Shown: one piece after another, positions 7,950 to 42,590 of the stretch
Numbering within the stretch: position 1 is the stretch's first letter
How the letters are laid out: each line of letters starts with the position of its first letter
DNA from: Bdellovibrionales bacterium
GTDB lineage: Bacteria > Bdellovibrionota > Bdellovibrionia > Bdellovibrionales > UBA1609
Reading direction: 5' to 3'
Length of the DNA: 64,000 nucleotides
Assembly (NCBI GenBank): GCA_027317865.1
Contig: DAHVQG010000001.1
Span: forward strand, 295,925-359,924
Position numbers and translations under genes: made by a program
The notes under the pieces: generated by a model
Databases searched by the model: none
What the model was told of the DNA's origin: nothing
What the model saw: the letters and a program-made list of their open reading frames with translations, nothing else

Positions 7950-8735
7950 TCAGCCGAGTTCAATTGGGGCATTGTTTGTCGCGCACCATTCGCTCCACGA
8001 GCCAGGGTATAGTTCAGACGGCATTTCTAATTCGGCTGCTATTAGAAGTAAAACGGCTGCGGTCACGCCAGATCCACAGTAGAAGACCGGATGTTCAAAA
8101 TTCAGTAGAGTTCGTAACTCGTTTAAAGGCAGAAATTTTCCGTCATTCGACATTGCACGCTTATAGTACAAGTTCACAGCGCCAGGGATGTGGCCCGCCT
8201 TCGGATCGATGGGCTCAACTTCACCGCGATATCGTTCGGGTGCCCTTGCGTCCACCAATTGACGCCCAAGAATCTGTTCTTTAGAAACAAAATTTATTAA
8301 AGGCGGGCGTTTGGTGAAGTTCTTTGCCTGAGGTTTTGTCGTTTCACCGCTTTCGATTGCCTTACCCGCTCGCCGCCAGGCCGACAAACCACCATTCAAA
8401 ACATAAACTTTTTCGTGCCCCATCCAACGCAACAACATCCATAAACGAGCCGCGCCGGAATGGTCGGTATCATCGTAAGCAACTACCGGGGTGTCTTGAT
8501 CAATGCCCAAGCGACAAAATAATCTGATAAGATCGGGCTCTGAGGGTAGCGGATGCCTTCCGTTTTGACCCGTTTTACGGCCAGAAAGATCAGACTCCAA
8601 GTCAACAAAAGTCGCTCCCGGGATGTGCGCCTCTTTGTATAGATTCACTGCTAATTTTGGGTCGCTTAATCGAAAACGAGCATCAATTAACCGCGCGTTG
8701 GGCGGAATATCTTCTATTTCAATTATATTTGTCAT
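7950..8735 (-). CDS. sseA: Two-domain rhodanese / 3-mercaptopyruvate sulfurtransferase
   Basis: HIPGA twice, GRHPLP, AARLWMLL, DARAPERYRG, CGSGVTA active site, YPGSWSEW. Confidence 0.9.
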   Translation of the reverse strand: MTNIIEIEDIPPNARLIDARFRLSDPKLAVNLYKEAHIPGATFVDLESDLSGRKTGQNGRHPLPSEPDLIRLFCRLGIDQDTPVVAYDDTDHSGAARLWMLLRWMGHEKVYVLNGGLSAWRRAGKAIESGETTKPQAKNFTKRPPLINFVSKEQILGRQLVDARAPERYRGEVEPIDPKAGHIPGAVNLYYKRAMSNDGKFLPLNELRTLLNFEHPVFYCGSGVTAAVLLLIAAELEMPSELYPGSWSEWCATNNAPIELG

Positions 8736-8773
8736 GTCGACAGTGTAGCTTCTTTAGGCTGGCAACGGTAGTT

Positions 8774-9757
8774 TTATGCCGCCTCAACCAATTTATGGCT
8801 GTAATGCGGGCGCACACGATCACGGAGAATTTCGTAAAGCTCCTCGCGCGATTGACCATTTGGATGAAGCCAACGATCGATATTGTTTGGCTTTAAAAAA
8901 ACGGGGCAACGTTCGTGGCCGGTTTCGGCAATTTCTTTTGGTGGATCATCCGTGATGATCGCGCAAGAATATAAATCAGGTTTGCCTTTTTGCTTATTCA
9001 CATCCCAGATCGTCGGGATGATCATGTAATCGGTATTGTCAGGTTCAAAAGAAAGAATCACACTTTTTCGCTCACGAAGTTCAGGGGCTAGCGAAAACTT
9101 CTCTAAATACTTTTCGGTAGGGACATGTTCATAAAATTTAGATACGATGACGATGCCGTGCTGCGTGCCGAAGACGGGCCGCCAAAATGGGTTCTCGAGA
9201 TTATCGAGACGGGCATTGTAGCAACCGCTAAATTTGCGATCGAAACTTTCGGCTTTGCCGCGCGGGCGCATGTGGTACCGAAATGGGGCCACAATTTTTT
9301 CGCCGGTTTCATCAACTGTAATCATTGAAAGATAACTCAATGGGAAAACGCTTTTTTCATCTTCAGAAATGTAGTCGGACGTATTGAATTTTTTAAGTTT
9401 AAATTTGATTTGGTCAATTTTATTTGTGGCAATTCGTTTTTCTTCAAGCGCTTTCTTCGTCGATTTTGCGCTCAAGCTGCGTTCGGCCAGCGTGAGTCGC
9501 GCTTGTTGTTTGAAAAGCTCTTCTTCAAGGAGGGTAATCTGATCTTTTCGCCATTTCAAAATCATCTCGGCGATATGCTTTTCTTGCGCTGATTTGGGGG
9601 CAACGAGAAACGGGTTCTCCATCGCTTTGTTGATCGTAAGTTTTTCGCCCTTTGCCCGCCGGGTAAAAATGTCCTCGTACATGTCGAGTTGCACACGAAC
9701 GCCGAATTTCATTCCGATTTCTTTTGCGTCTTGTTGGACCATCGCCGAGTAGCACAT
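8774..9757 (-). CDS. SOS response-associated peptidase (SRAP/HMCES family)
   Basis: N-terminal M-C-YSA with catalytic Cys2, YNARLD, FYE, AIITDDPP, GHERCP. Start reassigned to ATG 9757. Confidence 0.88.
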   Translation of the reverse strand: MCYSAMVQQDAKEIGMKFGVRVQLDMYEDIFTRRAKGEKLTINKAMENPFLVAPKSAQEKHIAEMILKWRKDQITLLEEELFKQQARLTLAERSLSAKSTKKALEEKRIATNKIDQIKFKLKKFNTSDYISEDEKSVFPLSYLSMITVDETGEKIVAPFRYHMRPRGKAESFDRKFSGCYNARLDNLENPFWRPVFGTQHGIVIVSKFYEHVPTEKYLEKFSLAPELRERKSVILSFEPDNTDYMIIPTIWDVNKQKGKPDLYSCAIITDDPPKEIAETGHERCPVFLKPNNIDRWLHPNGQSREELYEILRDRVRPHYSHKLVEAA

Positions 9758-10009
9758 GAACGGCATTATAGCGCTCGACGAAGAAATGCACAAATCTTCG
9801 AGCGGGAGGTTTTAAAAGCCATTAGCGTTGTCACACTCCTCCATCATTGTGGCTAGATGGTCTGTATCCATATCTAAACTCAGTTGAAATTTCACCTTGA
9901 TACGCGCGGCAATTTTTAACTCGAATCGACCGGCTCGGTGTCTATTTTTTATTCACTTGGGGGATTTGGACCAAAGTGTTGGCCCCCTAAGGCTGAATAA
10001 TCGGGGGAA

Positions 10010-11830
10010 ATGAAAATGAGGCTAATTCAAAAACTCGCGCTGATTGTGATTGCAACGGCCGTGTCAATTTCAGCTCAATCCATGACAATGAAAGTGCTGG
10101 GGGAGCATGTACCTTACTCCGCCATGGCGAGTGCAGTGCGCGTGGGGCAACTCGCCGCCAACACGCCGATGAATCTCACTGTGGTTTTGAATTTGCGAAA
10201 TACGCAAGCGCTGCAAACTCTGGTTAGCCGCCTATATAACCCGAATGACCCAATGTACGAGCATTATTTGACTCCCCAAGAGTTTCGCGCCGAATTTGGT
10301 CCGACCCGTCAGGATTTTGCGCAAGTTGAACAATATCTGAATTCACACAATTTGCGAATCATTCGCGAGACGACAAACACAGTTCAATTTCAAGGCACAT
10401 CGGCTGATGTTGAAAGCGCATTCGGCGTGCAGATGCAGAATTATTTGCAACCAAATGGCACGTTGGCCTACGCGCCCAGCGGTAACCCGCAGGTGGCAAG
10501 TCAAATTGCACCTGAAATTGCTGGCGTATTAGGGCTTAACACCTTCTCGCATTTTGTCGCTCACTATATCAAACGTCAAAATACCGAGCTGTCGCAATTT
10601 CAACCATTTGGCAGCGGACCTAACGGCGGTCTCTCACCGTCAGATATACAAACGGCTTACTCATTGGCAAATACGGGCGCAACCGGTGCGGGTCAAACGC
10701 TCGCGTTGATGGAGCTTGACGGTTACAATCCATCAGACATTTCAACTTACGCACAGACCTTTAATATTGGCTCGACGCCGGCATTGCAGAATATTTTGGT
10801 CGATGGTTATAACGGTTCAGCCGGGTCTGGTGCTGACGAAGTGACTCTGGATATTGAACTTATGATTGCCGTCGCGCACAGCGCCTCTAAAATTTTGGTT
10901 TACGAAGGGCCCAATACCGAAACGGGGCCCATCGACGTTTACAGTAAAATTGCGGATGACGACATCGCAAAAGAAATCAGTACTTCATGGGGCAGCCCTG
11001 AATCGCAAAATACTCAGGCGTTTTTGAACTCCGAAAATACAATATTTGAGCAAATGGCCGCGCAAGGGCAAACCATTTATGCCGCTTCAGGCGACTCGGG
11101 AGCGTACGACAACGGTTCAACTTTGGGCGTGGACGATCCCGCATCGCAACCCTACGTGGTTGCGGCCGGCGGCACGACACTCAATACGGCGACAAACGGA
11201 TCTTATATCAGTGAAAGCAGTTGGGGAATTCCAGCCAGCCCACAAAACCAATTACAAGGAGGCGGCGGCGGAATCAGTAGTGTATGGTCGATACCGAGTT
11301 GGCAGACTGGTGTCGCGAATAGCTTGAACAAGGGTTCAACAACAATGCGAATGGTTCCGGATGTTTCAGTCGAAGCCAACCCGCAAACTGGATACGCAAT
11401 CTACGTCGGCGGAAGTTGGGGCGTCTTCGGTGGGACAAGTTGTGCTGCGCCTATTTGGGCGGGATTTACGGCGCTGGTTAACCAAGCTCGTGCGAGCAAG
11501 GGTTTGAGTCCTCTCGGCTTTGCCGACCCTGCACTCTATAAATTGGGCGAGAGCTCAGCATACACAACTCTGTTTCATGACATCGCCGACGATTCGACCA
11601 ATTTATTTTACCCTGCCGTGAGCGGATATGATTTGTCGACGGGTTGGGGTTCAATGGTGGGGCCAAATTTATTATCGGCTCTCGTTGGTTCATCGGTAAC
11701 GCCAGCACCCACACCGACACCCACACCGACTCCCACGCCGACACCCACACCGACACCGACACCAACGCCAGCGCCGAGTGTGCCGCCGACACCAACAAAT
11801 TTAACGGTCGTTTCGGTTACGCCGAACTAA
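10010..11830 (+). CDS. Secreted S53 sedolisin/kumamolisin-type protease with Pro-Thr linker tail
   Basis: Signal peptide, pro-kumamolisin domain (YLTPQEF), EVTLD, SGDSG, RMVPDV, GGTSCAAP, GYDLSTGWGS, then (PT)n. Confidence 0.93.
   Translation: MKMRLIQKLALIVIATAVSISAQSMTMKVLGEHVPYSAMASAVRVGQLAANTPMNLTVVLNLRNTQALQTLVSRLYNPNDPMYEHYLTPQEFRAEFGPTRQDFAQVEQYLNSHNLRIIRETTNTVQFQGTSADVESAFGVQMQNYLQPNGTLAYAPSGNPQVASQIAPEIAGVLGLNTFSHFVAHYIKRQNTELSQFQPFGSGPNGGLSPSDIQTAYSLANTGATGAGQTLALMELDGYNPSDISTYAQTFNIGSTPALQNILVDGYNGSAGSGADEVTLDIELMIAVAHSASKILVYEGPNTETGPIDVYSKIADDDIAKEISTSWGSPESQNTQAFLNSENTIFEQMAAQGQTIYAASGDSGAYDNGSTLGVDDPASQPYVVAAGGTTLNTATNGSYISESSWGIPASPQNQLQGGGGGISSVWSIPSWQTGVANSLNKGSTTMRMVPDVSVEANPQTGYAIYVGGSWGVFGGTSCAAPIWAGFTALVNQARASKGLSPLGFADPALYKLGESSAYTTLFHDIADDSTNLFYPAVSGYDLSTGWGSMVGPNLLSALVGSSVTPAPTPTPTPTPTPTPTPTPTPTPAPSVPPTPTNLTVVSVTPN
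11698..11775 (+). repeat. 6-bp coding repeat for the (Pro-Thr)n linker
   Basis: ACACCG/ACACCC-type hexamers encoding TPAPTPTPTPTPTPTPTPTPTPTPAP. Confidence 0.9.
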
Positions 11831-11842
11831 AGGAGTAAAGAC

Positions 11843-12163
11843 GTGAAAAAAATACTTCTGATCGCCTTTTTCGGACTTCTAATAGTGGGTTGTAATTCGC
11901 ACATACCGTCACAGAGTTCAATGCGTGCGGGCGCAACGATGAACGTCAACTTGGCTTGGCAATCGGTGCCCGGCGCTCAACTCGGTTTTGACATTGAAGA
12001 GTCTGTCGACGGCAAAAACTTTATGCAAATTTTGACCGTGCCCGATGGAGTCAACTTTGCTAGTATTCCGGTTACATCGGGCTCGACCTATTACTTTCGC
12101 ATGCGCAGCTTTAACTCGGTTGGTACTTCAAATTACACTCCGGTAGTTACCGTTAGGCTGTAG
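11843..12163 (+). CDS. Lipoprotein with fibronectin type III domain (apparently lacking strand A)
   Basis: AAGGAG RBS, lipobox IVGC, VNLAW...GFDIE...GSTYYFRMRSFNSVGTS FN3 motifs. Confidence 0.8.
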   Translation: MKKILLIAFFGLLIVGCNSHIPSQSSMRAGATMNVNLAWQSVPGAQLGFDIEESVDGKNFMQILTVPDGVNFASIPVTSGSTYYFRMRSFNSVGTSNYTPVVTVRL

Positions 12164-12200
12164 TGCTTGTTTGAAATTGTGGTCCAGCGGCAAACCATGA

Positions 12201-12779
12201 TTACTGTGAGTTGCTAAGAAACGGGATGAGCATCGGAACGCGCTGTTTGTAGTCCTCATAAACGTGGGCACCCAATTCGCTTGCCAGCCATTGTTCTTCA
12301 AGACGCGCTTTGAGCCAAAAGCTAAAGATGATTAATATTCCGCCGATTACCGCGTTAATCGTCCCGTACTGTATTACAGTCGCCACAATCGCGAAGCTCA
12401 CACCCGTGTAAATGGGATGTCGGACAATTTGGTACGGGCCCGTGTCAATTATATGGTGATTTTCTTTGTGTGTAATTGAACCGGACCACAATCGTCCAAT
12501 GTGTATACGTGCCCACCAGGCAAACGCGAATCCGACGGCAACAAGCCCTAAGCAAAGCCACGCAATCGCATTGTTGACACTCCATAAATGCCACGAAGCT
12601 TTCGTGCTTTGAGCGGGTAAAACAAAGAGTAAAAACAGACCAAAAAACGTAACAGCCCGATATTTAAGTTCAGCGCGCAAGTTTAGACGCCTTACGGTTT
12701 TGTTGGTCCAAAAGGAAGCGGCAATCCACGAAGCAAACCAGGCGATCCACAATAAACCGGTCAAAAAAATAGTTTTCAT
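12201..12779 (-). CDS. Isoprenylcysteine carboxylmethyltransferase family membrane protein
   Basis: WARIHIGRLWSG, TGPYQIVRHPIY, EEQWL, YKQRVPMLIP. Confidence 0.88.
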   Translation of the reverse strand: MKTIFLTGLLWIAWFASWIAASFWTNKTVRRLNLRAELKYRAVTFFGLFLLFVLPAQSTKASWHLWSVNNAIAWLCLGLVAVGFAFAWWARIHIGRLWSGSITHKENHHIIDTGPYQIVRHPIYTGVSFAIVATVIQYGTINAVIGGILIIFSFWLKARLEEQWLASELGAHVYEDYKQRVPMLIPFLSNSQ

Positions 12780-12894
12780 GCGCTTATACAATACTTCTTT
12801 TTACACTTGAGCGGAAGGGGCTGTGCAAGTTTTAGCATCGTCAAAATCTTGATGGTTACGTGCGGATCTGTTAAAAATCGCGCAGGGAGGGCTC

Positions 12895-13287
12895 ATGCGG
12901 TTGCTCGGAAACCTGATTTGGTTTATTTTTGGCGGCTTTTTCATGGGGCTTGCGTGGTGGTTAGCCGGATTGTTGGCTGCTCTTACGATTATTGGCATTC
13001 CATTTGCTATTGCCGCGTTTCGTATCGGCACGTTTTCATTTTGGCCGTTTGGCCGCCAAATTGTGCCGCAACCGAACAGAGGTGAAGTCCATGAGCTACT
13101 CGATTTTCTAGCCAATATTTTGTGGATCATCTTCGGCGGTTTGTGGCTGGCCATCGGGCATCTTGTTTGGGCACTGATTTTCACCATCACGATAATTGGA
13201 GTACCGTTTGCCGTTCAGCATTTGAAATTAGCCCGTCTTTCTTTCACGCCGTACGGCAAACGGATCGTGGCAGCGGCACAGGTGTAA
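12895..13287 (+). CDS. yccF: YccF-domain inner membrane protein
   Basis: Duplicated NLIWFIFGG...TIIGIPFA...WPFG repeat. Confidence 0.9.
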   Translation: MRLLGNLIWFIFGGFFMGLAWWLAGLLAALTIIGIPFAIAAFRIGTFSFWPFGRQIVPQPNRGEVHELLDFLANILWIIFGGLWLAIGHLVWALIFTITIIGVPFAVQHLKLARLSFTPYGKRIVAAAQV

Positions 13288-13460
13288 TGACATTTTCGCT
13301 CGCCCGGTTCAACTGTCAGAATTTTTGACAATCAAGAACATTGTTCATGCGAATCAATTGGGCGTGTTTGATGCTGCAAGATGTGGCTGTCAAAAATAAT
13401 AACATCTTTTTACTGAATTTCGTTCATGGCATATTGACGTGTGTGAAAGCTAGGGTTCGG

Positions 13461-14513
13461 ATGATTTCGCGAATCATGTTTATTTCTTTTCTTATATTAT
13501 CATCGGTAAGTTACGCGAGTAATTTCGACAGTGGTGTGCCGTTAAAAAACCGGTACAGTAGTTATTTCGACCAATTCGACGAATTGGATCCGAAGCCTTC
13601 GCAATTTCTGGCGCCAAATGAAACGCAGCCTAAAGATTTGCTGCCGATTTTAGTCAATGCGCAAAAGGGCGTGTATGTCAGTGTGGGGACAGAACGCGGT
13701 TTTATGGCCGCGGGTCTATCAGGCGCGATCACAGATCTTGTGCTTGTTGATCTTGATCCAAGCATCGCGTTCTACAATACGATAAACATCGAATTGCTAA
13801 AGGCGGCTAAAAATAGGGAGCAATACGTTTACTTGCGTACGAAGGCTACCGAGAGCGACTGGCAAACCGCGCTGAACGGTCTAGTGGCACATGATCAGAT
13901 CGCGAAACAGTGGGAGTGGTGGCGCGACGCCGTTTTGCCAGAAGCTCGAATGGATGTTTTTCATATTGACCCGACAAAATCGAAATATCCAAATCCGTCG
14001 TTTGAAGATGCGAATTACTTGTACCTCGAGAAAAACTTCAAGCGGGTGAAACGACTGGCGGACCACGATCGCATTCAAGTGCTAGAGGCCGATATAAAAA
14101 ACAGTAAAGTCTTGAATTTGTTTGAGCGGTTTAAAAAATCCGGACAACAAATTTCAGTTATCGATATCAGTAATTTGTATGGCCCGGGTCACGCCGGGGC
14201 AAAATATACCGCTGCATTTTTAGAAAGCATAAGGTCTGTTGTTGATGAAAAAACTATTTTGGTTTACACAATCGGGCGCGGAGATTCTTCGGGTGAATGG
14301 TTCTACGTTGGGTTTCGTTTCGGCAAAATTTGGCATGAGGGTGTTTATAAATTTGTCGATGAGAACCTAAAACAGCGCCCACCATATTTGAATCGCTACA
14401 ATCACTCTACGTTTTTCGAAGGCGAACCTGCCTATGTGAATGTAAAACCCCAGAATCAATCCTGTGGCCGCATTTTGCGTTCAACTGGACCAAGGTATAG
14501 TCCCACTATTTGA
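13461..14513 (+). CDS. Secreted hypothetical protein, possible Rossmann/SAM-methyltransferase-like fold
   Basis: Signal peptide (SVSYA); YVSVGTE..., VLVDLDP, IDISNL motifs. Confidence 0.55.
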   Translation: MISRIMFISFLILSSVSYASNFDSGVPLKNRYSSYFDQFDELDPKPSQFLAPNETQPKDLLPILVNAQKGVYVSVGTERGFMAAGLSGAITDLVLVDLDPSIAFYNTINIELLKAAKNREQYVYLRTKATESDWQTALNGLVAHDQIAKQWEWWRDAVLPEARMDVFHIDPTKSKYPNPSFEDANYLYLEKNFKRVKRLADHDRIQVLEADIKNSKVLNLFERFKKSGQQISVIDISNLYGPGHAGAKYTAAFLESIRSVVDEKTILVYTIGRGDSSGEWFYVGFRFGKIWHEGVYKFVDENLKQRPPYLNRYNHSTFFEGEPAYVNVKPQNQSCGRILRSTGPRYSPTI

Positions 14514-40615: not shown

Positions 40616-42313
40616 TTATTTCGATGTGAGAGCTGTGAACAGTTTGGGACCAATCATCGAACCCCAACCCGTAGAAAGATCGTAACCGGTGACGGCCGGG
40701 TAATAGAGATTGGTCGATTGGTCGGCTATATCGTGAAATAGAGATTCGTACGACGAGCTTTCTCCTAAACTGTAAAACGTTGGGTTAGCAAAACCCAGCG
40801 GTTTGAGCCCTTTGGTTGCGCGAGCCTGGTTGACAAGTGCAGTAAACGCAGCCCAAATCGGCGCCGCACAACTTGTGCCCCCAAAAATGTTCCACATACC
40901 GCCCGTATAAATCGCGTAGCCTGTATTAGGATCGGCGTCGATTGCGACGTCTGGGACCATCCGCATTGTCGTCGAACCTTCGTTCACGGTTGACGCGACA
41001 CCTTTTTGCCAGCTTGGAATGCTCCAAATGCTGCTGATGCCACCGCCACCGCCTTCGGGTTGGCCAGATGATAAACTGCCTGCGACGCTCCAGCTGGTTT
41101 CGCTTTGATAAGCACCAGAGGAGGCTGTTGTTAATGTTGTACCGCCAGCCGCAACCACATAAGGTTGCGAAGCTGGATCGTCGACGCTTAAAGTTGAACC
41201 GTCGTCATAGGCGCCGGAATCTCCTGAAGCGGCATAGATCGTTTGCCCTTGGGCGGCCATTTGCATAAAGATCTTATTTTCGGCCTGTAAAAACGCGGTC
41301 GTGTTTTGCGATTCGGGGGCACCCCAAGAACTGCTGATTTGTTTAGCTTTATCGTCATCAGCAATTTTCGCGTAAACGTCGACGGGGCCGTTTTCAGAAT
41401 TCGGGCCCTCATAAACCATAATTGCTTTAGCTTGTGGCGCAACGGCCATCATCAATTCGATATCGAGCGTCACTTCATCGGCGCCCTGGCCGGCTGAACC
41501 ATCGTAGCCGTCAACCAATACGGTTTTGAGCGGCGGTTCATTGATGTTGTAGTTCTGGGCATAGGTTGCGATATCCGACGAAGCAAAACCGTCTAGCTCC
41601 ATAAGCCCAAGAGTTTGGCCCGCACCCGTGGCGCCTGCCGCTTGTAACGAGTAAGCGTTTTCGATATCGGCTGGACCTAGACCACCAATTGGTCCAGACG
41701 GAGGGTTCGTCGGATTTGAGCTTAAAGACTGATTGGTTTTGCGTTTGATATTGAAAGCGACAAAGTGGGCAAAACTGTTAAGGCCTAAAATAGCCGTAAC
41801 TTTCGACGCCAGCGTACTCTCAACATGTGGAGCCGCATCGGGAGCGTAAGCGAGCGTGCCGTCCTGTTTTTGATATTCTTGCATTTGTACGCCAAACGCC
41901 TTTTCTACGTTTGCCGAATATCCTCGACATTGAATCGTGTTCGTCGTCGTACGCACGATTTGCAAATTGTGGCTTTGCAAATAACTGCCGACGAGCGCAA
42001 ACGTTTCGGGTGTCGGGCCAAATTCCGCTCGAAATTCTTTCGGAGTTAAATAGTGGTGATACATTGAATCGTTCGGATTATAAAGTCGGTGAATCAAAGT
42101 TTTTAGAGCTTGCTGATGCCGTAGATTGAGTACCACAGTCAAGTTCATCATGTGGCTCGGAGCCAATCGGCCGACATTCATCGCCCCGACCATGGCCGCG
42201 TAGGGCACGTCTCCTAACAGTTGCATCTGTGATGGCTTTTGTGTTTTTGCGTGCGCTGCTAACGATAGCGTAAGCGTCGAGAGTAGAAGCGCGGCCCTTT
42301 GAATCCCTTTCAT
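40616..42313 (-). CDS. Second secreted S53 sedolisin/kumamolisin-type protease (no tail)
   Basis: EVTLD, SGDSG, GGTSCAAP, GYDLSTGWGS; long identical stretches with 10010-11830. Confidence 0.93.
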   Translation of the reverse strand: MKGIQRAALLLSTLTLSLAAHAKTQKPSQMQLLGDVPYAAMVGAMNVGRLAPSHMMNLTVVLNLRHQQALKTLIHRLYNPNDSMYHHYLTPKEFRAEFGPTPETFALVGSYLQSHNLQIVRTTTNTIQCRGYSANVEKAFGVQMQEYQKQDGTLAYAPDAAPHVESTLASKVTAILGLNSFAHFVAFNIKRKTNQSLSSNPTNPPSGPIGGLGPADIENAYSLQAAGATGAGQTLGLMELDGFASSDIATYAQNYNINEPPLKTVLVDGYDGSAGQGADEVTLDIELMMAVAPQAKAIMVYEGPNSENGPVDVYAKIADDDKAKQISSSWGAPESQNTTAFLQAENKIFMQMAAQGQTIYAASGDSGAYDDGSTLSVDDPASQPYVVAAGGTTLTTASSGAYQSETSWSVAGSLSSGQPEGGGGGISSIWSIPSWQKGVASTVNEGSTTMRMVPDVAIDADPNTGYAIYTGGMWNIFGGTSCAAPIWAAFTALVNQARATKGLKPLGFANPTFYSLGESSSYESLFHDIADQSTNLYYPAVTGYDLSTGWGSMIGPKLFTALTSK

Positions 42314-42590
42314 ATAATGACCTCCCCTGGTCAAAGCTGCTTCGGTTGTGCGGTTGCTTTGGGTTTTCTTCCAAAGTGAAAAATGAATATGGTGCCTGTC
42401 GGTTAGAGTTTTCTAATGTTTGAACTAAAAAAAATTTTAGCGTGTAAAATTGAAAATGGCGCACGTAAAAATATTTTCTGGACACTCGACGGGGAGTCCA
42501 GTTGTATTTTCGACACTAGGGTATCTGAGGTGTGACATTATTTGTTTATCGAGAGCATCGAACGTCGAGTCGGCTCTGTCTAGTCTAGTT

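Follow-up and report, generated by a model that had tools for sequence, protein, structure and literature searches.

Can one FN3 (fibronectin type III) domain be divided between a secreted enzyme and a separate lipoprotein that would hold this enzyme on the cell? The question is raised by two adjacent genes in a stretch of 64,000 nucleotides from the Bdellovibrionales bacterium assembly GCA_027317865.1 (contig DAHVQG010000001.1, positions 295,925 to 359,924 of the forward strand), which is termed the window throughout and whose genome is designated G000. The upstream gene encodes a peptidase of family S53 with a chain end resembling a solitary FN3 strand A, and the downstream gene encodes a small lipoprotein with an FN3 domain that begins at strand B. 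The two genes probably represent the halves of one FN3 domain that is cut in the A-B turn, and the explanation that we favour, with somewhat better than even confidence, is the donation of strand A in trans, which would tether the protease non-covalently to a lipid anchor. The relevant features of the window are listed here, with the basis of each assignment in brackets.

10010..11830, + strand: gene for a secreted pre-pro S53 (kumamolisin/sedolisin-type) serine protease of 606 amino acids (open reading frame [ORF], Pfam, 1t1e match)
11696..11779, + strand: spacer rich in proline and threonine (PT spacer) between catalytic domain and tail, about residues 563-590 (sequence; the kumamolisin alignment stops at 562)
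11780..11827, + strand: C-terminal tail VPPTPTNLTVVSVTPN, a predicted lone FN3 strand A and proposed donor strand (alignment to a hidden Markov model [HMM], codon changes)
11828..11842, + strand: TAA stop, AAGGAG ribosome-binding site (11830-11835) and 7-nt spacer, forming a tightly coupled junction (sequence)
11843..12163, + strand: lipoprotein gene, 106 amino acids (ORF)
11843..11893, + strand: lipoprotein signal peptide and lipobox (MKKILLIAFFGLLIVGC), with Cys17 as the predicted lipid-carrying residue (sequence, family conservation)
11894..11935, + strand: flexible linker, residues 18-31, NSHIPSQSSMRAGA..., probably not strand A (variable, disordered in models)
11936..12163, + strand: FN3 domain limited to strands B, C, C', E, F and G (residues 32-106), and stop codon, the proposed acceptor (AlphaFold2, structural matches, HMM)
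40616..42334, - strand: paralogue of the S53 protease with 68% identity, lacking spacer, tail and partner (internal comparison)

The two halves of the putative split domain

The protease carries an N-terminal signal peptide, as read from its sequence, followed by a pro-kumamolisin activation domain (PF09286, 2e-30, residues 42-179) and a subtilisin-like catalytic domain (PF00082, 2.2e-8), the arrangement that defines peptidase family S53. It matches pro-kumamolisin 1t1e over residues 29-562 (E 6.5e-66), and its stretches GGTS(CAAP), (D)EVTLDIE and (A)SGDSG each have an aligned equivalent in kumamolisin; we take them to hold the catalytic Ser-Glu-Asp triad and the oxyanion Asp. Past residue 562 kumamolisin has no counterpart: a PT spacer of ~28 residues is followed by VPPTPTNLTVVSVTPN as the end of the chain (C-terminus ...SSVTPAPTPTPTPTPTPTPTPTPTPTPAPSVPPTPTNLTVVSVTPN; TAA stop 11828-11830). 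The first-pass annotation had read this end as an FN3 strand A behind a PT linker, and the reading is borne out by the alignment of the tail to the start of FN3, i.e. to positions 1-12 of a 92-position FN3 HMM, with a score of 2.3 bits that is not significant alone. Judged by its codons, the tail is under purifying selection, because the 16 codons exhibit nine synonymous and two non-synonymous differences between G000 and the congeneric genome G006. The paralogous protease on the opposite strand ends with ...GPKLFTALTSK directly after the catalytic domain, and no FN3 lipoprotein was found downstream of it (locus L022), in agreement with the earlier statement that it has neither tail nor partner. 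G006 likewise possesses a tail-less S53 paralogue (locus L023).

The lipoprotein gene starts with GTG at 11843, 12 nt past the protease stop, and its AAGGAG ribosome-binding site shares bases with the TAA stop codon, so that the initial description of a closely following gene with its own ribosome-binding site and lipobox holds in every element. The junction is no assembly artefact, because contigs of independent runs span it unchanged: one of them (run X2) covers 11600-12200 and deviates only within the PT spacer, by five substitutions and a 6-nt deletion, and a contig from another study covers 11748-12200 with one difference (Logan contigs). A 97% identical protein (P0006) is 16 amino acids shorter, with a visibly shorter PT run and an unchanged tail. 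The length of the PT spacer drifts between near-identical populations, and the tail, the junction and the lipoprotein stay constant.

The lipoprotein begins with MKKILLIAFFGLLIVGC, continues with NSHIPSQSSMRAGAT and MNVNLAWQ..., and ends with ...YYFRMRSFNSVGTSNYTPVVTVRL. Its lipobox LIVGC with Cys17 fits the pattern [LVI][ASTVI][GAS]C of bacterial lipoproteins and thus predicts lipidation; G16 never varies, and 11 of the 12 members of the family that we assembled keep C17. The nearest complete relatives of its FN3 domain are tandem repeats in larger proteins of the related genomes G018, G088 and G033 (one example is PAAPSNLSLSVQSATQINLAWRDNSNNESGFYIER...), and an HMM of these nearby repeats recognizes the window lipoprotein with 3e-17. 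The general Pfam fn3 profile yields only E 0.08, which is below the cut-off, with residues 25-104 aligned to profile positions 6-83.

Two AlphaFold2 models were compared. The model based on 12 family members has a mean predicted local distance difference test (pLDDT) score of 83.4, and blocks of ten residues over 31-106 average 91-98; the model based on five orthologues (mean pLDDT 72.8) contains an extra short strand at 94-98 and otherwise agrees within one residue. The strands of the 12-sequence model, 32-38, 48-54, 61-67, 72-78, 82-90 and 102-105, would correspond to B, C, C', E, F and G. No strand precedes residue 32 in either model, and residues 1-30 of the 12-sequence model have low block means (pLDDT 49, 53 and 58). 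The model superposes on solved FN3 domains: a structural comparison with the PDB retrieved FN3 domains throughout (Z 9.4-11.3, root-mean-square deviation 1.4-2.5 over 72-76 residues). Isolated FN3 chains that are numbered from 1 (3tes, 6zzc_D, 6o03_C and 7t82_E; Z 9.6-9.9) match model residues 31-106 starting at their residue 14-16, and in terms of this superposition the piece of the solved chains that has no counterpart in the lipoprotein is strand A. The single chain therefore holds six of the seven strands A, B, C, C', E, F and G in the model. The claim that the lipoprotein FN3 begins at strand B is upheld by these results, and a complete seven-stranded FN3 formed by the lipoprotein on its own, which had been named as a finding that would speak against a split, was seen in neither model.

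The first-pass annotation had also considered that the segment PSQSSMRAG of the lipoprotein linker might be its own strand A. We do not favour this possibility: the linker between lipobox and strand B is the least conserved and most length-variable part of the 12-member alignment (16-28 amino acids as parsed) and the least hydrophobic one, with 31 hydrophobic residues among the 230 of all family linkers together, and it is disordered in the models.

The complementarity of the two gene products becomes apparent when both are aligned to one FN3 reference, namely the 92-position HMM, which was built from 12 complete repeats of the nearest relatives. All 12 lipoproteins align from position 3-14 to position 87-89 (E 1.5e-15 to 2.1e-19), and nine of the ten protease tails align from position 1 through position 9-13. 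HMM coverage and models thus describe an acceptor fold that lacks one strand and a separate polypeptide that ends with that strand, which is the arrangement of donor-strand complementation.

Conservation of the gene pair

The pair is conserved in two congeners. The protease of G006 ends with ...PPVSVPPTPTNLTVVSITPA and is followed after a 12-nt spacer by a lipoprotein with 75% identity, and that of G005 ends with ...SSAPPPPTNLIVISVTTY and is followed after an 11-nt spacer by a lipoprotein with 68% identity; both genomes keep tail, stop, ribosome-binding site and lipoprotein. In family- and phylum-level genome searches the tail-plus-partner form was found only in G000, G006 and G005, and the other S53 genes of the phylum have different C-terminal ends. 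A scan of genome contigs returned the G005 record only, and no hit came from a first scan of metagenomes in which the lipoprotein alignment of the genus served as query.

Outside the genus, the protease homologues nearest to that of the window share 55-58% identity with it and have 656-700 amino acids. They possess a complete internal FN3 domain with its own strand A, yet they also end with a lone terminal strand, e.g. ...VSVTPTLMVPQAPGNLSVNIGGQ. An alignment of their C-terminal regions (internal FN3 plus tail) was used to retrieve metagenome loci, and in seven of these (L036, L037, L038, L039, L041, L042 and L047) the next gene after the protease encodes a lipoprotein partner with signal peptide, lipobox, a linker rich in G, S, N and P, and an FN3 domain that begins at strand B (QINLTW, EVNLAW, QVKLTW, QVHLSW, AQITW, QIQLSW). 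The partner gene of L038 is truncated by the contig end. These lipoproteins are 30-48% identical to that of the window; the protease homologues P0010, P0012 and P0014, which match three of the loci, are 55-58% identical and P0040 is 50% identical to the window protease. Six of the seven loci have a complete internal FN3 in front of the tail (about 118-123 residues after the catalytic motif), whereas just 23 residues separate the catalytic motif from the protease end in L047, which documents that the tail persists with different spacers. The spacing between the two genes in orthologous and distant pairs ranges from a 1-nt overlap up to 15 nt, as worked out from the coordinates.

In a scripted count, an FN3 lipoprotein is located directly downstream of the protease in 10 of 10 tail-bearing loci; among the 32 tail-less S53 loci that are non-redundant, have a complete 3' end and are followed by 350 nt or more, there is no such case. 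Left out of the count were six duplicate loci, five with less than 350 nt downstream, 11 with ORFs running off the contig and three in which the script found no protease ORF. Other proteins that end in a lone strand next to an FN3 lipoprotein, which the first-pass annotation had proposed to look for, are present in G006, G005 and the seven metagenome loci. A strict version of the tail pattern occurs at the end of 7 of the 2497 ORFs of at least 150 amino acids in G000; given this low frequency and the presence of the partner in 10 of 10 tail-bearing loci, the combination of tail and partner is beyond chance.

The tail pattern is present at the C-terminus in 23 of the best 120 S53 homologues; by eye two of these are false and two true cases were missed, so that, to judge from the sequences, a lone strand A terminates about one in five of the 120. 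Many S53 homologues have C-terminal FN3 or FN3-like domains (PF00041, PF16656), each of which has its own strand A, whereas the chain stops after the lone strand A in the window protease. A fused FN3 domain of the lipoprotein subtype was found in none of the best 120 S53 homologues (top score 27.8 bits vs 110-161 for the partners). Nor did any of 206 candidates from a word-based search turn out to be a longer, fused relative of the lipoprotein; this is weak evidence. The other outcome that had been named as arguing against a genuine split, with all homologues fused and a strain-specific break here, was not observed either, and the strain-specific break was rejected as the split recurs in G006, G005 and seven distant metagenome loci. 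A profile search with the alignment of 12 lipoproteins against 1.84 billion representatives produced 53,496 matches at E <=0.001; the best 150 are all large multi-FN3 proteins (845-7068 amino acids, 7-51 matched stretches), and the search therefore gives no size for the small-lipoprotein family.

Proposed strand donation and its alternatives

When lipoprotein residues 18-106 (5-row alignment) were co-folded with the last 36 residues of the protease (3-row alignment), a score of 0.52 was obtained (runs 0.54, 0.52 and 0.48), compared with 0.02, 0.01 and 0.00 for the three controls, among them 0.00 with an unrelated protein in place of the lipoprotein. The runs agree in at least 93% of their contacts, and the pLDDT of the partner is at least 67. 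The verdict of the tool was 'weak support' and no interface was returned. Its mark is reached by 116 of 157 solved complexes and by 2 of 215 mismatched pairs; at scores of 0.60 or lower, it is reached by only 18 of the 157 solved complexes and by both of the passing mismatches. Strand donation is also plausible from the behaviour of FN3 domains: PMC4330816 describes a folding core of strands B, C, E and F that forms first, with strands A and G packing last, and PDB entry 4m6a is, by its title, an N-terminal beta-strand-swapped FN3 scaffold.

The donor-strand tether that had been proposed for this locus is thus sustained in its structural part, i.e. the complementary halves and the conserved split, whereas for its physical part, the docking, we infer from these halves and from the co-fold that the tail binds the lipoprotein and that binding completes the fold. 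As we picture it, both proteins would be exported through Sec. The lipoprotein would be lipid-anchored at Cys17 and would present, behind a disordered linker of ~14 residues, a six-stranded FN3 with an open edge at strand B; the protease would bring the missing strand A at its extreme C-terminus on the PT spacer. In the envelope, the tail would insert beside strand B and complete the sandwich. The outcome would be a 1:1 non-covalent tie of the protease to the membrane anchor via a flexible stalk, with the enzyme held on the PT stalk here and on an FN3 stalk in the relatives, and tight translational coupling would deliver both partners together. From the topology of FN3, a cut in the A-B turn would let the two chains leave the domain at opposite poles, and a pull between membrane and enzyme would therefore load the A-B pairing in shear. 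The purpose of such a complex would presumably be the retention or display of the enzyme.

Several observations weigh against strand donation or limit its reach. The co-fold score lies in a band that the tool itself rates as more often wrong than right unless the complex is likely beforehand. AlphaFold2 may fold the acceptor regardless of its stability without the strand, and a six-stranded FN3 might be functional alone. With the FN3 HMM, a single tail reaches no more than about -1 to 2 bits; the weight of the tails as evidence comes from the fact that all land at the same place of the model, not from the individual scores. The count of 10 of 10 is circular, because the lipoprotein HMM was built from those same partners (the positives were first noticed by reading ORFs, before the HMM count), and the tail-bearing set is a biased sample, because the metagenome query included internal FN3 and tail, but not the partner gene. 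Locus L043 (2909-3240) keeps the gene pair with a degenerate protease tail (TPGASSGLSSSETP), and its lipoprotein contains a segment TPSVTAVNNRALLSW (TPSVTAV) that resembles, by eye only, the cis strand A of internal FN3 domains; by its sequence, L043 may be an unsplit or reverted form of the pair, and since the pair is kept despite the degenerate tail, its function may not need the tail. Finally, the residue at position +2 after the lipoprotein cysteine varies (N in the window, S, G and T elsewhere, D in L042), which leaves either membrane, and either face of it, as a candidate site for the complex.

Alternatives to the tether differ in what they make of the tail. One is that it does bind the lipoprotein, which would act as escort, sorting adaptor, regulator or inhibitor instead of a static anchor; this appears distinctly unlikely to us. 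The lipoprotein could, for example, bring its protease to the cell surface or the outer membrane, or hold the zymogen until activation; complementarity and co-conservation apply equally to these roles, the tight translational coupling suggests co-delivery, and the persistence of the pair in L043 agrees with a function beyond anchoring. However, the lipoprotein has no conserved part beyond the FN3 core that could act on the protease, and the contact would be located 30-120 residues away from the catalytic domain, across the PT spacer or a whole FN3. It is unlikely, but has several observations on its side, that there is no complementation in trans at all, so that the tail would be the stump of a lost second FN3 or merely the end of a linker, the genes would be neighbours for other reasons, and the lipoprotein would work alone, either six-stranded or with its linker as a weak strand A. 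The sub-threshold Pfam fn3 match covers part of the strand-A region, the alignment of the window lipoprotein to the full FN3 HMM extends back to residue 21, the co-fold verdict is weak, and the L043 lipoprotein may have a cis strand. A stump, however, is not expected to be under purifying selection, as the codon differences of the tail indicate, would not survive across proteases that are 50-58% identical to that of the window and have different spacers, and would not be tied to a partner in 10 of 10 loci vs 0 of 32; for the linker, its variability, low hydrophobicity and disorder argue against a role as strand A.

Very unlikely is a tail that targets something else, such as the catalytic domain or pro-domain of its own protease, another envelope protein, or a secretion machine that reads a C-terminal signal. 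A secreted protein on contig C40 of G000 and its G006 orthologue (see below) have a very similar tail and no adjacent partner gene, from which it follows that such tails can function away from a neighbouring lipoprotein. On the other hand, the tail of the window protease matches precisely the piece that the neighbouring FN3 is missing, the co-fold collapses with an unrelated protein in the lipoprotein's place, and the end residues of the tails are varied (N, A, Y, Q, T, P, D, H), whereas the C-terminal signal of outer-membrane proteins ends in an aromatic residue. The prospect that both ORFs are read as one protein with an unsplit FN3, through stop read-through or a sequencing error, is close to nil. 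It draws on the common frame of the two ORFs in the window and in G006, where a single TAA lies between them; it is excluded because the 11-nt spacer of G005 puts the ORFs in different frames, and the junctions of distant pairs differ as well, with starts 0-1 nt after the stop, a 1-nt overlap or a distance of 13-15 nt. Each partner moreover has its own ribosome-binding site and start, contigs of independent runs agree in the junction, and a read-through product would bury the lipoprotein signal peptide inside the FN3.

Known systems and possible further clients

Donor-strand complementation and exchange are established for chaperone-usher pili, in which an incomplete immunoglobulin-like beta-sandwich is completed by the strand of another polypeptide; the literature on these systems includes PMC5625045 on DraE. 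The proposed tether resembles them in the completion of a sandwich by a foreign strand and in a stable non-covalent link in the cell envelope. A pilin, however, lacks its C-terminal strand G and obtains a replacement from a chaperone or, in the polymer, from the N-terminal extension of the pilin that follows, whereas in the tether an FN3 would lack its N-terminal strand A and would receive it from the C-terminal tail of an enzyme, as a 1:1 heterodimer. Among the ORFs listed for 8500-14500 no chaperone, usher or pilus gene was recognized by eye, no family search having been made, and the ORFs listed beside the gene pair are on the opposite strand. The type V pili of Bacteroidota (FimA/Mfa; PMC4789730 and PMC13655056) likewise involve lipoprotein precursors, and one subunit donates a strand to another at the outer membrane. 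Their pilins belong to other folds and families and polymerise after proteolytic removal of a strand, whereas the lipoprotein of the window would be the acceptor for a protease, with no processing implied. The gene pair is accordingly not classed under either pilus system. The swapped scaffold 4m6a is alike in that one chain can supply strand A to the FN3 of another, but it represents, as far as its entry tells, a case of crystal packing or engineering.

The combination of a short tag and an incomplete domain as a docking pair is familiar from engineered tools, i.e. SpyTag/SpyCatcher and split monobodies. SpyCatcher, a CnaB2 domain, binds covalently through an isopeptide bond; the pair described here is natural, genetically split, conserved and presumably non-covalent. 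A soluble periplasmic protease is held by an outer-membrane lipoprotein in NlpI-Prc and LbcA-CtpA, which are similar in this respect. NlpI and LbcA, however, are tetratricopeptide repeat (TPR) proteins that bind folded surfaces of S41 proteases, without a split domain. In functional terms, cohesin-dockerin tethering likewise resembles the tether proposed for the protease. The full-text literature searched, with subscription-only literature outside its scope, contained no description of a naturally split FN3 beside an S53 protease or a lipoprotein; measured against that literature, strand donation between polypeptides is already known from pili, and a natural split FN3 that tethers an enzyme would be a new form of it.

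If binding is confirmed, it would explain the orphan terminal strand in about a fifth of the best 120 S53 homologues, establish a new two-gene module that retains secreted enzymes on the cell, provide a natural precedent for tag/catcher tools with about 15 plus about 75 residues, and represent a clean case of a domain split between genes in the course of evolution.

A tail of the same kind also occurs outside the S53 proteases. The C40 protein mentioned above (G000:C40:32476-32943, - strand) is a secreted protein of 133 amino acids with an FN3-like domain of its own (TWTIPTTNTDG...NLAGFDIYYG); it ends with ...VIPSPPTNLTLTAQ and is followed by no gene on the same strand. Its orthologue in G006 (L088:1495-1905, + strand) is 69% identical and keeps the tail as VIPSPPTNVTLTAQ behind a diverged linker. 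In G001 and G004, two congeners without the lipoprotein, all matches to the C40 protein stop before the tail. The similar tail of the C40 protein is the reason why the lipoprotein may have more than one client. A general membrane 'catcher', for which the lone strand-A tail would be a portable natural tag on several secreted proteins, with the S53 protease, the C40 protein and its orthologue in G006, and enzymes of other phyla that bear such a tail as clients, is a doubtful extension of this idea. If it were true, it would amount to a widespread non-covalent tag/catcher sorting for the display of enzymes on bacterial envelopes, and the pair would be usable as a small genetically encoded docking pair.

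The C40 protein has three tail-less paralogues of the TWTAPTTNTDG...NLAGF.IYYG type in G000, namely, C37:20886-21446 (- strand), C8:2894-3397 (- strand) and C39:165169-165624 (+ strand; L092:1318-1773), with which it forms a small FN3-like family. Two of the three are lipoproteins with G/S-rich linkers behind the lipobox, and the C39 copy has a similar linker and no evident lipobox. A different type of chain end was observed in another family of the same phylum: the tail-less S53 proteases of L026, L028, L030, L031 and L035 carry a cysteine as last or penultimate residue (...VTGC, ...AVGC, ...AIGC, ...AASC and ...SGCV).

A promoter and terminator scan of 9700-12400 returned sites that are no more numerous than in shuffled sequence. 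Near-identical DNA of the section 11600-12200 is present in runs X1-X8, which are labelled as metagenomes of wastewater, of sediment and, in one study, of mine drainage; no RNA run is among those listed. Activity in acid is a classical trait of S53 enzymes, and a protease of this type may fit the mine-drainage habitat. In the ESM Atlas, small FN3-like proteins (109-114 amino acids) that resemble the lipoprotein form clusters of 53-73 members from Acidobacteriota, Thermodesulfobacteriota, Actinomycetota and Myxococcota, and these clusters might represent the partner family in other phyla.

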